A stretch of DNA of 7,246 nt from Escherichia coli (GCF_003334765.1 NZ_QOWT01000061.1), one strand, 5' to 3'; numbered from the stretch's first letter, positions 1 through 7,246 are shown. The notes: generated by a model from the letters alone, not told the origin. Made by a program: numbers and translations.

Positions 1-145
1 TTTACGGGGTTTTTTACTGGTTGATACTGTTTTTGTCATGTGAGTCACCTCTGACTGAGAGTTTACTCACTTAGCCGCGTGTCCACTATTGCTGGGTAAG
101 ATCAGTTTCTTGGTGCCCTTGTCTCTTGACTTCGAAAAGAGTGTC

Positions 146-574
146 TTACTTCACCCAGTCTTCCAGCACCAGGTCAGGCACCCGCTCAAACTCTCTTGTA
201 TTATTCGTCACCAGTATCGCCCCGGCAGCGATGGCGTGCCCGGCAATCGCCGTGTCGTTCGGGACGATTGGCGTCCCGGCCAGCCGCAGTGCCATTTTAA
301 TCTCCGTGGTGGCGTCCACGGCAGCGCGGTCCCAGGGCAGAATGGCATCGAGGCGGGCGCAGAACGCGTCAACCAGCGCAATATGACGCGGTGAGGCTTT
401 CGGGCCGGTGGCGCCGAAACGCATCTCCGCATAGGTGATGGCCGACACGACAATGCGGTGGTTACGCAGCACCGCCTGCTCCAGACGTTTGATCACTGCG
501 GCGGGCTGTTCACGCATAATGAAAGAGCAGATATTCGTGTCGAGCATATAGGTCTTCGTTCGGGTCTGTTTCAC
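146..574 (-). CDS. vapC: PIN-domain toxin VapC (MvpT/VagD-like ribonuclease) of a type II toxin-antitoxin pair
   Basis: 142-aa ORF with PIN-like features: N-terminal MLDTNI motif and a C-terminal TNNTREFERV block that matches plasmid VapC/MvpT as I recall it. The GTG start at 574 overlaps the vapB stop (GTGA). An internal ATG at 547 would give a 133-aa product, the usual VapC size, so the true start may be 547. Confidence 0.9.
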   Translation of the reverse strand: MKQTRTKTYMLDTNICSFIMREQPAAVIKRLEQAVLRNHRIVVSAITYAEMRFGATGPKASPRHIALVDAFCARLDAILPWDRAAVDATTEIKMALRLAGTPIVPNDTAIAGHAIAAGAILVTNNTREFERVPDLVLEDWVK

Positions 575-801
575 AGGTCAAATCTTCCTTCGTCGCTGAC
601 AATGTCCTCACGCTCCGCCATAAAGTCTGCGTCGGCCTTTTCGAGTGCCGCAAACGAGCTCCAGGTCGGCCGGACCGGGCGCAATATAATGCTGTCTCCT
701 TCGCGGACGATCTCAAGCTCGCTCACCCCCTCAAAATCCAGATCACGGGGCAGACGGATGGCGCGGTTGTTGCCATTTTTAAATATCGATACGGTTCTCA
801 T
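571..801 (-). CDS. vapB: Antitoxin VapB (MvpA/VagC-like, AbrB/SpoVT-type DNA-binding fold)
   Basis: 76-aa ORF immediately upstream of and overlapping vapC. The N-terminal region (VSIFKNGNNRAIRLPRDL) looks like a swapped-hairpin AbrB-type domain, with an acidic C-terminus. A GGGAGAG Shine-Dalgarno sits 6-12 nt upstream of the ATG on the minus strand. Confidence 0.9.
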   Translation of the reverse strand: MRTVSIFKNGNNRAIRLPRDLDFEGVSELEIVREGDSIILRPVRPTWSSFAALEKADADFMAEREDIVSDEGRFDL

Positions 802-960
802 GTTTTTTCTCTCCCGAACAGATGGATATGTGAATCATATCCGGAATATTCAAAGCACCGGGGGTGTGCATATGTTTAGTATAGGCAGATGCTAGGCATC
901 TGTATAGCCGTAGCATATGTAGATGCAAGGCATATGGATATGTTTAGCATATCTATATTT
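802..960 (-). promoter_or_regulatory. Putative vapBC promoter/operator region
   Basis: Perfect 7-bp inverted repeat GGATATG(N5)CATATCC at 824-842, 22-40 nt upstream of the vapB start. Palindrome CAGATGC-TAG-GCATCTG at about 886-902. Several CATATG and ATATGTTTAG repeats between 868 and 952. No exact -35/-10 is assigned. Confidence 0.4.
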
Positions 961-1189
961 CTTTCTTTTTTATCGGAGATCCGAAAAAAGGTAGTCACGG
1001 ATCTTCCTCTCCCGCCGCACAGCGCCATCTCCCGTCAGCACAACATGTAGTGCTGAATTTGGCTGTTAATGACACTATATGTTGTGTCATCTCCCTGACC
1101 TGTGATGCGCCGCGCAGGGGCGGAAAACAGTGATATGATGATTTTCTCAGCGTGGTACACTTCCGGAAAGTTGTGATATTCATGAAAGT

Positions 1190-1394
1190 CGGATCTGACG
1201 GAAACGGGAATGCGATAATTACGGTTTGTTTTTATAAGTCAGATTTTGATTTTTATTGGTTAACATAACGCAAGGTAAAATAAATAATGCTTACTAAAAG
1301 TAAGATAACAGTATGTGTATTTACGCGCTGATTTTTGCATCATAATAATATATACTTATATGCATACCTGAAGTGTGTCAAAAAGAGGTGTACT
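1190..1394 (+). promoter_or_regulatory. Putative ccd operon promoter/operator region (AT-rich)
   Basis: Strongly AT-rich stretch directly upstream of ccdA, with a TTGCAT hexamer near 1335 and TATACT/TATA-like elements at 1350-1365. ccd operons are autoregulated by CcdA-CcdB binding upstream (established knowledge); exact sites are not resolved here. Confidence 0.35.
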
Positions 1395-4985: not shown

Positions 4986-5378
4986 GTGGACGATGAACGG
5001 AAAAGGAAAAAATACACACTTTATCTGCATCCGGAAAAAGCTGCAGACTTTCAAACTTTGGAAGCGATAGAGTCCGTTCCGCGTTCTGAGCGTGGTGAGC
5101 TGTTCCGGAATGCATTTATTTCTGGAATGGCGTTACACCAACTTGATCCTCGCCTGCCTGTATTGCTGACTGCCATTTTGAGCGAGGAGTTTTCAGCAGA
5201 TCAGGTTGTAACCTTACTCAGTCAGACGACTGGATGGAAGCCTTCTCAGGCCGATATCAGAGCTGTGTTGACTGAACTCGGTGCTTCGCAATCTGCTGAA
5301 AAAATGCCTCCTTCTGCTACTGATTCGGTGCAGGAGGCAATGAATGATGTGCGTCTTAAAATGAAAAAATTATTCTGA
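4986..5378 (+). CDS. parR: Centromere-binding adaptor ParR/StbB of the type II system
   Basis: 130-aa product from a GTG at 4986, preceded by an AAAGAGGAG Shine-Dalgarno and starting 5 nt after the parM stop. The tool ORF begins at 4950, inside parM. The N-terminal region resembles R1 ParR (VPRSERGELFRNAFISGMALHQLDPRLP vs IPQGERSRLNRAALTAGLALYRQDPRTP). Confidence 0.85.
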   Translation: MDDERKRKKYTLYLHPEKAADFQTLEAIESVPRSERGELFRNAFISGMALHQLDPRLPVLLTAILSEEFSADQVVTLLSQTTGWKPSQADIRAVLTELGASQSAEKMPPSATDSVQEAMNDVRLKMKKLF

Positions 5379-5409
5379 TATATCAGAATGAAGCAATGGG
5401 GATCTCAGT

Positions 5410-6252
5410 CTATTGTGTTGTATACGAAGGCGATAGCATTTCCTGTTTCATTTGCCATTCAGGGGCGGTTCCTCGCCCCGCAAACCACACTTTCCCTTTT
5501 CCCGACTGGTTCAGTTCATCGAGTGTTTTCATTAACTTTTCACTGTTTTTACGGGGCTGGATTTCATCAAATAATCCCGGCTGCGCTATACCCGATGGTG
5601 TGAAATCAGCCAGCATGACTCCTGCCTTCATATAGCGGTACCCTTCACGCCAGACATGGTTTAAGGCTCTGCATGCGGCGGCAATAATGTCCCGGCTGTC
5701 CTGTGTGGGCAATGAAAGCTTTTCCACAGCGGCATTGCTGTAACAGGGTTCTTTTACTGCAAAGGGGGATGTCCGTACAAATGTCGTCACCTGCCGGCAA
5801 TACTGACGCTCCCCACGTAGTTTCTCTGCGGCCCGCTCAGCATACTGAACAACAGCCTGGTGCATGGCATCTTTGTCTGTGATTCGTTCACCAAAACTGC
5901 GACTACAGACAATCTGCTGTTTTGCCGGTGGTGCTTCTTCCAGGGATATGCAGGACTCGCCGTTGAGTTCGCGTACCGTACGCTCAAGAATGACGCTGAA
6001 GTTTTTCCGGATGAATGCCGTGTTAGCCTGCGCCAGCTGCAGTGCTGTGTTAATACCCAGCGCATTCAGCTTTTCCGTCAGTCTGCGTCCTACTCCCCAG
6101 ACCTCACCAACTGGCTGCAGCCCCAGTAGCTTCAAGATCCGATTACGGTTTTCTGCCGTCAGCGCGACCACACCGGAAAACTGTGGCCATTGCTTTGTTG
6201 CCCACTGTGCACTTTTAGCCAGCGTTTTTGTAGGCGCAATGAATATCAGCAG
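5410..6252 (-). pseudogene. umuC: 5'-truncated umuC/impB-family Y-family (Pol V) polymerase gene; about 150 N-terminal codons missing
   Basis: The ORF aligns with E. coli UmuC from about residue 145 to the C-terminus (IAPTKTLAK..., VWGVGRRL, ERTVREL, CSRSFGERIT, WQMKQEMLSPSYTT). Extending the frame upstream, similarity stops at about 6240-6250 and a stop codon lies at 6253-6255. No umuD-like gene is upstream. Confidence 0.8.
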
Positions 6253-6532
6253 TCAGGGAGACAACTTCATTCAGGTTGATTTCGACACGCCGTGGTGTCA
6301 GCCGGAAAGCGACGTTATTGCAGAATTAAGCCGCCGTTTCAGTTGCACGCTGGAGCACTGGTATGCCGAGCAGGGCTGCAATTTCTGTGGCTGGCAGTTG
6401 TATGAGCGTGGAGAGTTTGTTGATGTCCTGTGGGGAGAACTTGAATGGTCTTCCCCGACAGATGACGATGAGCTGCCGGAAGTCACCGGACCTGCGTGGA
6501 TAGTCTACAAGGTGGCGCATTACGGTGGATGA
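6239..6532 (+). CDS. Hypothetical 97-aa protein (orphan ORF; possibly a 5'-truncated gene remnant)
   Basis: The ORF lies in non-umuC DNA between the umuC breakpoint and the IS end. The product is Trp- and acid-rich with four Cys (C20, C36, C47, C50, including CNFC). The RBS is poor (AGGCG only 2-3 nt from the ATG), and the frame is open upstream only because it runs antisense through umuC. Confidence 0.4.
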   Translation: MNISSQGDNFIQVDFDTPWCQPESDVIAELSRRFSCTLEHWYAEQGCNFCGWQLYERGEFVDVLWGELEWSSPTDDDELPEVTGPAWIVYKVAHYGG

Positions 6533-6585
6533 AGTATGACGAGCCTGTTTAAGATTCTGTGTAAATGCCTTGTCTCTTTTATCTG

Positions 6586-7246
6586 TGAACTCAGGCTGCC
6601 AGATCATCGTTTCCAATGGATGGAAGCATAATAAGCTTTTTCTGCTTCTGCCGGAGGAGTATGACTCAGCCTTTCCAGCAATCGTCGATTGTTATACCAG
6701 TCCACCCACGTGAGTGTGGCCAGTTCCACTTCTGCACGTTTTTTCCAGCTCTTACGGTGTATTACCTCCGCTTTGTAAAGACCATTGATGCTCTCCGCCA
6801 TCGCGTTGTCATACGAGTCGCCTGTACTCCCTGTTGATGCCAGCAGTTTTGCTTCTTTTAGTCGCTCCGTATAGGCCAGTGACACATACTGAGAGCCTTT
6901 ATCGCTGTGATGGATGGTGCCGGACGGACGACGGGCCCACAACGCCTGCTCCAGTGCATCCAGCACGAATGTCGTTTCCATGGACGATGATACCCACCAT
7001 CCCACGATATATCCGGCAAATACATCAATGATGAACGCCACTATAGACGAAGCCCTGCCATGTGCTGACGTAAGTAAAATCAGCCACCCACAGCTGGTCA
7101 GGACGTTCTGCCACGAACTGACGGTTTACGCGGTCACCTGCGGCAACGGTTTTCCGGCTGACGGTAGTGCGGACCTTTTTACCCCGGAGAACACCGGCAA
7201 GTCCCATAACCGCCATGAGGCGCGCCACTGTACATCTGGCCACCCT
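6586..7246 (-). mobile_element. Partial IS3-family insertion sequence (IS629/IS1203-like), right end, running off the window
   Basis: The minus-strand ORFs encode an IS3-family DDE transposase OrfB (HHSDKGSQYVS; GDSYDNAMAESINGLYKAEVIHRKSW). The terminus TGAAC at 6586 is consistent with an IS3-family end, with the transposase stop close to the inverted repeat. Only about 660 bp of the element is in the window. Confidence 0.75.
6604..7243 (-). pseudogene. IS3-family transposase orfB, disrupted by a frameshift near 7025-7045
   Basis: Two minus-strand ORFs (7025..7243 and 6604..7041) overlap by 17 nt in different frames. Together they read as one continuous OrfB (...DFTYVSTWQGFVY / AFIIDVFAGYIVGW...), which implies a 1-bp indel. 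The first ORF ends prematurely (YSGVHH*). Confidence 0.65.

Follow-up and report, generated by a model that had tools for sequence, protein, structure and literature searches.

Plasmids of the IncF, IncI and IncR groups are known mosaics, and the double partition (par) locus is a textbook system. In plasmid pB171, as Ebersbach and Gerdes (2001) and Ringgaard et al. (2007) are said to have described, par1 consists of parM, parR and parC1 and is of type II, and par2 consists of parA, parB and both parC1 and parC2 and is of type Ib. The maintenance region RepFIA of the F plasmid, in turn, follows the order rfsF, oriV-1, ccdAB, resD, repE/incC and sopABC. Two par types are known in pUTI89 as well as in pB171 (PMC9800825), and the backbone of IncR plasmids includes parAB, umuCD, rfsF-resD and vagCD (PMC9412624). 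Here we compare with these systems a stretch of 7,246 nucleotides from Escherichia coli (GCF_003334765.1, NZ_QOWT01000061.1), referred to as the window, in which a GC-poor core at about 2716-5405 is a single known unit, a double par locus of the pB171 type. A first-pass annotation, made by eye, had described the window as a compositional mosaic, with AT-rich par genes and intergenic regions set off at about 2731 and 5380 from GC-richer vapBC, ccdAB-resD and umuC modules, and had taken this pattern to fit separate acquisition of the modules. We conclude with good confidence that the GC profile is real, that it belongs to a routine mosaic whose GC-poor core is this par locus, and that the GC contrast is a persistent property of the class.

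In megablast searches of PLSDB, whose relatives of the window we label L001 (pLAO63) to L021, the window showed 99-99.9% identity to IncF plasmids from enteroaggregative E. coli with agg/aaf fimbrial genes, for example pLAO63 and p55989; it is the maintenance region of a pAA-type IncF plasmid of enteroaggregative E. coli. The feature map was drawn from open reading frames (ORFs), record annotation and searches of NCBIfam and PDB, by all of which the gene calls of the first-pass annotation proved right. At gathering thresholds, Rfam gave no RNA family for the window.

A double partition locus of the pB171 type

The match to pB171 rests on ParR and on the architecture of the locus, ParR alone having been compared directly. 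Encoded at 4986-5378 on the plus strand, ParR is identical at 129 of 130 residues to PDB entry 2JD3, the ParR of pB171 (PMC3074162). The actin-like ParM (4010-4981, plus strand) matches structures of R1 ParM with E = 4e-76 and shares one operon with ParR, as in type II systems. The second operon, on the minus strand, has the composition of a type Ib system, a small Walker-type ParA of 214 amino acids (3137-3781) together with a small ParB of 91 amino acids (2868-3143), whose gene overlaps the parA stop codon. Over its full length, ParA aligns with TP228 ParF (4dzz) and with NF041546, the latter at 117 bits, under the curated cut-off of 180. For ParB, neither NCBIfam nor a sequence-level search of PDB gave a match, not even to ParG or omega; some records annotate the protein as a member of the CopG (ribbon-helix-helix) family.

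The two operons lie on opposite strands, 228 bp apart, around a shared, parC1-like region of divergent promoters and centromere repeats (3782-4009, 32% GC), and a second, parC2-like array follows downstream of parB in a stretch of 29.6% GC (2716-2867) that also contains the left junction of the block, with its breakpoint at 2715/2716. Against an expectation of 19.6, the window contains 40 copies of the hexamer TRTGAW, a count reached by none of 200 shuffles. Half of the copies fall into par intergenic DNA, nine in 2731-2848 and 11 in 3796-3936, and copies often follow each other in 7-bp phase. This layout agrees with the dual repeat arrays described upstream and downstream of pB171 par2 (PMC7602700), and arrays and promoters explain why the par intergenic DNA is so extremely AT-rich. 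Separate from the hexamers, two 15-nt direct repeats with a palindromic core, CTCA(A/G)ATTGAGTATT, are found at 3941-3955 and 3982-3996, just upstream of parM; they are kept in an Enterobacter homologue (L005, 5899-6136) and are candidate operator or centromere sites of ParR. The locus differs from its pB171 counterpart in its host, a pAA-type plasmid of enteroaggregative E. coli. Its partition activity, which in loci of this type includes the stabilisation of a test plasmid by either par system and an oscillation of ParA over the nucleoid, is predicted.

At least 80% of the par block was present in 996 of the 1,010 PLSDB records that have any part of it; these 996 records carry both par operons, indicating that the operons form one unit. 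We also compared the window with relatives L012-L021, plasmids whose types are IncF, IncI-gamma/K1 and IncFIB+IncR and whose hosts are E. coli, E. albertii, E. fergusonii, Salmonella and Klebsiella. In this set, the identity of the par genes amounts to 98.5-100%. The parC1 region (3782-4009) differs by 0.4-5.7% in the same comparison and is thus more divergent than the genes, suggesting faster evolution of the centromere/promoter region than of the proteins binding to it. In the locus as a whole, the type Ib parA-parB and the type II parM-parR operons diverge from a shared AT-rich centromere/promoter region, with the second AT-rich hexamer array adjoining the resD stop codon, and its low GC has two components: the very AT-rich repeat and promoter DNA (28-32% GC) and a low synonymous-site GC in all four par genes.

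The GC profile of the window

The compositional contrast seen by eye holds when computed. The GC content is 51.9% over 1-2730, 41.4% over 2731-5380 and 52.0% over 5381-7246. By gene, it amounts to 60% in vapC, 55% in vapB, 50% in ccdA, 52% in ccdB, 57% in resD and 52% in the umuC fragment, compared to 46% in parB, 41% in parA, 43% in parM and 46% in parR, with 28.5% and 32% in the two par intergenic regions. As modules, vapBC has 55-61% GC, with a GC content at third codon positions (GC3) of 0.64-0.73, and ccdAB-resD 50-57% GC. Recursive likelihood-ratio segmentation under a Bernoulli null yielded significant change points at 217, 774, 1693, 2705 and 5575, with log-likelihood ratios (LLRs) of 7.7-27.8, where the null has a 99% maximum of about 6-7, so that step changes are present at or near both edges of the par region (2705 and 5575).

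Could these steps nevertheless be gene-to-gene noise, with no real mosaic behind them? The diffuse right boundary and the unremarkable standing of the par block on a related whole plasmid, both detailed below, would fit such a view. However, the segmentation LLRs lie far above the null, the steps coincide with independent breakpoints in homology and in synonymous divergence, and GC3, when pooled, is 0.370 over the four par genes against 0.595 over the nine other coding stretches (chi2 = 94, p = 3e-22), each par gene (parB 0.38, parA 0.31, parM 0.40, parR 0.40) falling below all nine (Mann-Whitney p = 0.003). We therefore give noise hardly any credence. The GC gap is mainly synonymous, residing at third codon positions; at the first and second positions (GC1+2) the values are 0.46 in par genes and 0.52 elsewhere, a gap of only 5.7 points, for which reason amino-acid composition was rejected as the main cause of the low GC. 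A wider form of the same idea holds that function alone dictates the low GC, through the centromere repeats, the promoters and the amino acids that make up the Par proteins, and that neither history nor mutation contributes. Both the lower GC1+2 of the par genes and the intergenic DNA, which is the most AT-rich of the block and packed with TRTGAW, speak for it. Yet the intergenic DNA makes up only 365 of 2,650 bp and the coding gap is mostly synonymous (GC3 0.37 versus 0.60), which largely refutes this explanation and leaves it very improbable.

The left GC boundary is sharp, with a support interval of 2650-2740 and a peak at 2700-2710, whereas the right one is a ramp, with LLR values between 4800 and 5675 that fall short of the maximum by 4 units at most. 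With a likelihood this flat, composition allows a boundary at about 5380 without pinning it. Both boundaries proposed by the first-pass annotation are thus real as recombination junctions (see below), but only the left one is also a sharp step in GC. Its map moreover overlooked a third AT-rich zone, the vapB-ccdA spacer at 802-1394, which at 39.8% GC is AT-rich like the par block, and one of the change points, 1693, lies within ccdB, showing that GC steps do not map one-to-one onto module junctions.

As whole-plasmid background we used p55989, which is 99% identical to the window and has 72.5 kb and 46.1% GC. Its 2.65-kb windows range from 31.0 to 59.5% GC with a standard deviation (sd) of 6.5 points, placing the par block at the 24th percentile, and gene GC3 across the plasmid ranges from 0.25 to 0.69 with a mean of 0.46, from which the par block deviates by no more than about 1.2 sd. 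The block is therefore compositionally atypical with respect to its immediate flanks, but not with respect to the replicon, and the mosaic is statistically solid yet ordinary for such a plasmid.

Junctions, cassette exchange and the age of the contrast

Both edges of the par block are true recombination junctions. With 80% coverage of megablast matches as a proxy for spanning, a 600-bp probe across the resD-par junction matched 4,700 PLSDB records, 967 of which span it; most matches end at 2715-2716, 15 nt inside the 3' end of resD, and about 3,700 plasmids have resD without the par block. The C-termini of ResD differ between lineages. A probe across the par-umuC junction matched 3,567 records, with 968 spanning, and its non-spanning matches, which include IncI1, IncK and many IncF plasmids, begin at 5405, 5420 or 5437 (query positions 326, 341 and 358), so that the right junction (5405-5437) has its breakpoints at or just inside the umuC stop codon (5410-5412).

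In the F-like plasmid pRCS57, homology to the window covers 153-2715 and resumes about 160 bp upstream of a DUF1281 gene. The slot between resD and this gene holds repE-sopAB(C) in pRCS57 (about 4.6 kb) and par2-par1-umuCD-dinI in the intact relative pLAO63 (about 4.7 kb), and it is thus a place for alternative partition-bearing cassettes. Up to 2715, ccdA, ccdB and resD are 92-99% identical to those of pRCS57, with vapBC upstream and the DUF1281 gene downstream of the variable slot in both; apart from the replacement of repE-sopABC, the differences from RepFIA concern the spacer upstream of ccdA and the last 4-5 residues of ResD. In our model, plasmid backbones would swap whole cassettes in the slot from resD to the DUF1281 gene, repE-sopABC in F-like plasmids and par2-par1-umuCD-dinI in plasmids of the window's type. 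IncI1, IncK and IncI-gamma plasmids have the same functional set (rfsF-resD, type Ib parAB, impCAB/umuCD-dinI, the DUF1281 gene and parMR) and the same contrast of GC-rich resD/umuCD with AT-rich par, and some plasmids typed IncI-gamma/K1 or IncFIB+IncR carry the double par locus of the window itself at 99% identity. In IncI1 and IncK, however, umuC-umuD-dinI-DUF1281 sits between type Ib parAB and parMR, the parAB and parMR proteins are 33% and 37% identical to those of the window, and the repeat arrays are without TRTGAW.

Synonymous divergence (dS) from five relatives, which include plasmids typed IncI-gamma/K1 and IncFIB+IncR and others with the same resD allele, is 0.12-0.18 in resD, 0-0.06 in the par genes and 0.03-0.04 in umuC (Fisher p = 2e-8), a shift of 5-10 fold across the resD-par junction. 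Against an Enterobacter plasmid the order is reversed, with 0.6-0.7 in vapBC, 1.2 in resD and saturation in par and umuC. These discontinuities indicate that the modules have different histories, and to this extent, together with the breakpoints and the alternative cassettes, the proposal of separate acquisition stands. It is a further step to suppose that vapBC, ccdAB-resD, the par genes and umuC were each acquired separately from compositionally different donors, whose signatures survive as the GC steps. In addition to the discordant dS and the alternative cassettes in one slot, this supposition could draw on the coincidence of GC steps with the homology breakpoints at 2716 and 5405-5437, and on the concentration of the contrast at GC3, which is expected of mutational history rather than of protein constraint.

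Several observations count against it. The two par operons form a single unit, and both junctions are present in about 96% of some 1,000 carriers. A transposon-like insertion of the block was considered and rejected, as neither bounding direct or inverted repeats above chance nor transposon ends were found; a comparison of the two junction regions for shared k-mers of at least 9 nt yielded none, and one shared 8-mer is at chance level. In GC and GC3 well under the values of its neighbours and of E. coli-like DNA, and in its sharp left boundary, the block resembles AT-rich acquired islands. Unlike these, it is without mobility genes and without the repeats at both junctions that would mark discrete mobile boundaries, is not atypical for its own plasmid, and keeps its context in most carriers as well as in a relative whose synonymous sites have diverged to saturation. 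Although resD adjoins the block, the probable site of its product lies upstream of ccdA, at a distance of about 1.6 kb.

That relative, the Enterobacter cloacae plasmid OW849534, has about 70-73% nucleotide identity over the par block and keeps the gene order (vapBC ... resD-like, parB-parA, parM-parR, umuC-umuD) as well as the TRTGAW arrays. Its par genes, at GC3 0.41-0.51, form the minimum of the core, with 0.57-0.81 in resD, vapBC and umuC and 0.47 in umuD, although synonymous sites of par and umuC are saturated between the two plasmids (proportion of synonymous differences, pS, 0.74-0.84). The linkage of the par block to resD and umuC is thus old, and a passive donor signature is unlikely to have persisted over such a distance, as it should have converged with its flanks. 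The same step also recurs with partition systems that are not orthologous to those of the window: sopA and sopB have a GC3 of 0.42 and 0.34 beside a resD of 0.61; ParA and ParB of IncI1 and IncK plasmids have 0.36 and 0.27, and their ParM 0.43, beside umuCD at 0.54-0.59; and ParA of TY474p2 has 0.36 beside a resD of 0.66. The low GC thus has the appearance of a lasting feature of partition cassettes rather than of a dated donor signature. Polymorphism data point the same way, if weakly: among 14 sequences, minority alleles comprise 7 AT-to-GC and 24 GC-to-AT changes in par coding DNA and 21 and 49, respectively, in resD and umuC. With the minority allele taken as derived, few sites, imperfect polarisation and low power, the test shows only an absence of upward GC drift, and hence of upward amelioration, in the par genes. 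Polarisation with the Enterobacter plasmid as outgroup was dropped because of its saturated synonymous sites. On this evidence we consider it unlikely that the GC steps are the surviving signatures of separate donors: as an acquisition record, the contrast fails, since the par genes are one long-linked unit and the dip recurs elsewhere.

Our preferred reading, a real but routine mosaic with a persistent, class-wide GC contrast, has to be held against several points that weaken it. The saturated dS could be due to the par cassette having been replaced by another allele in a conserved slot, rather than to long co-residence, in which case the persistent dip would not speak against a foreign AT-rich gene pool. 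The recurrence comprises six loci rather than a systematic survey; its cases are not fully independent, as ParA and ParM homologues share distant ancestry, and sopB encodes the sole clearly unrelated centromere-binding protein among them. The junction counts depend on the coverage proxy and on PLSDB, which is heavily redundant for E. coli, and the reasons for the persistently low GC3 of par genes are candidates that we infer. These include a separate AT-rich, promiscuous gene pool, mutation bias in genes that are rarely host-adapted, and selection, for example through H-NS-type silencing or the control of low expression and dosage. Under the preferred reading, the contrast would have been kept over long evolutionary time, with partition cassettes AT-rich at silent sites and resD and vapBC GC-rich as classes. 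Large-scale work on plasmid composition, according to which plasmids are AT-rich with a composition set by plasmid lineage and not by host (bioRxiv 10.64898/2026.07.20.739530), is consistent with this class-wide reading. Going further, one might suppose that the partition operons of enterobacterial plasmids, of any family (type Ia sopAB, type Ib parAB, type II parMR) and on any backbone, are actively held at low synonymous GC beside resD and vapBC that stay GC-rich, and that this upkeep could work by recruiting H-NS-like silencers, by throttling dosage-sensitive Par proteins or through a distinct promiscuous gene pool; the low GC would then be no leftover of a foreign origin. The dip in six loci and its persistence through saturated synonymous divergence are compatible with this more general idea without establishing it, and we regard it as tentative and rather doubtful.

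Flanking modules and the place of the locus on plasmids

The window begins with the end of an IS3-family element (1-104), which maps elsewhere in pLAO63; collinearity with this plasmid starts at 105 and extends to 6241. The toxin-antitoxin genes vapC (146-547 or 146-574) and vapB (571-801) follow on the minus strand, both supported by NCBIfam and record annotation. The start of vapC is ambiguous, as a GTG at 574 overlaps the vapB stop codon, the usual form of coupling, and the records use the ATG at 547. The vapBC allele is 74-90% identical to the F-like one, from which it differs by a 12-nt indel. On the plus strand, ccdA (1395-1613) and ccdB (1615-1920) encode proteins that match the equivalog models NF010264 (163.7 bits, cut-off 100) and NF010262 (214.2 bits, cut-off 147), both above cut-off. 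Directly downstream lies resD (1921-2730, plus strand), an ORF of 269 amino acids whose tyrosine-recombinase matches fall under the cut-offs of the Xer family; the records name its product a site-specific integrase, and the gene is 92-97% identical in nucleotide sequence to F-like resD.

Between vapB and ccdA lies a highly mosaic spacer of 593 bp (802-1394), which at 47-60% identity to the F-like plasmid across 850-1345, and with only 67 of 4,852 matching records spanning it, is more variable than either of the junctions named in the first-pass annotation. Its parts differ in composition, with 38.9% GC in 802-994, 50.7% in 995-1207 and 28.3% in 1208-1394. The last of these, 187 bp directly upstream of ccdA, is as AT-rich as the centromere arrays; in F, the stretch just upstream of ccdA comprises oriV-1 and the ccd promoter. 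The middle part is a conserved element of about 210 bp with stand-alone matches in IncI plasmids at 90-96% identity. It contains an inverted repeat, CACAACATGTAGTG (1039-1052) and CACTATATGTTGTG (1073-1086) separated by 20 nt, a motif conserved in F-like and Enterobacter loci, and in TY474p2 and IncI plasmids the element precedes the resD operon and borders the colicin gene set. The target of ResD, rfsF, is a known switch point in IncI1, IncR and IncF plasmids (PMC8004404, PMC9412624, PMC4398462), and its position in the literature agrees with that of the element (PMC4398462, PMC8004404). By position and conservation, 995-1207 is probably the rfsF region. A breakpoint at 1063 in p55989-type plasmids, between the two repeat arms, was rejected as a ResD/rfsF crossover, as a hairpin-ended insertion of the IS110 family (ISEc45) is located there.

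The segment downstream of this element varies as well. A plasmid of sheep E. coli (L013) has a RES-domain/HTH gene pair at 1056-2472 in addition to ccdAB, and in an Enterobacter plasmid (L005, 2299-4108) and in L018-L021 unrelated small ORFs replace ccdAB upstream of resD; the plasmids with replaced ccdAB include Enterobacter, IncI-gamma and E. albertii plasmids. The slot from vapB/rfsF to resD hence carries plasmid-specific cargo, which in the window is ccdAB.

Beyond the par block, the window retains the 3' two-thirds of umuC/impB (5410-6240, minus strand), which match NF002955 (UmuC) at profile positions 164-414 and encode a protein with 97.6% amino-acid identity to IncI1 ImpB, and a 3' fragment of the DUF1281 gene (6241-6540, plus strand). 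The two were joined by a deletion of 1,979 bp relative to pLAO63, at 6240/6241 with a 2-nt (TG) microhomology, which took the 5' end of umuC, umuD, dinI and the 5' two-thirds of the DUF1281 gene, so that umuDC is non-functional in the plasmid of the window. An ORF of 222 amino acids (5864-6532, plus strand) runs antisense through the umuC remnant and in frame across the deletion junction into the DUF1281 fragment; it is probably spurious, but could give rise to a chimeric product with a DUF1281 C-terminus. Homology with F-like and other non-pAA plasmids stops exactly at 6541, where a partial IS3-family element begins (6541-7246, minus strand), recognised by its ORFs and by NF033516 (IS3 transposase). 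The orfB of this copy is broken into two ORFs that overlap (6604-7041 and 7025-7243), implying that it is a frameshifted pseudogene. IS3-family DNA is thus present at both ends of the window, and in the relative L002 an IS3 transposase gene adjoins vapC.

All parts of the window belong to known systems, namely the pB171 double par locus, F-type ccdAB-resD, vapBC, a umuDC/impAB block and IS3 remnants, and the locus has little importance beyond correct annotation. As the par dip is conserved together with its context, a GC step alone is no evidence of recent or separate acquisition. The alternative cassettes that occupy the slot from resD to the DUF1281 gene bear on plasmid incompatibility and typing; several relatives are typed IncFIA, although their region is without repE-sopABC. 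With the par cassette shared at 99% or more by plasmids of the IncF, IncI-gamma/K1 and IncFIB+IncR types, it may matter for partition-mediated incompatibility, which would concern co-resident resistance and virulence plasmids.

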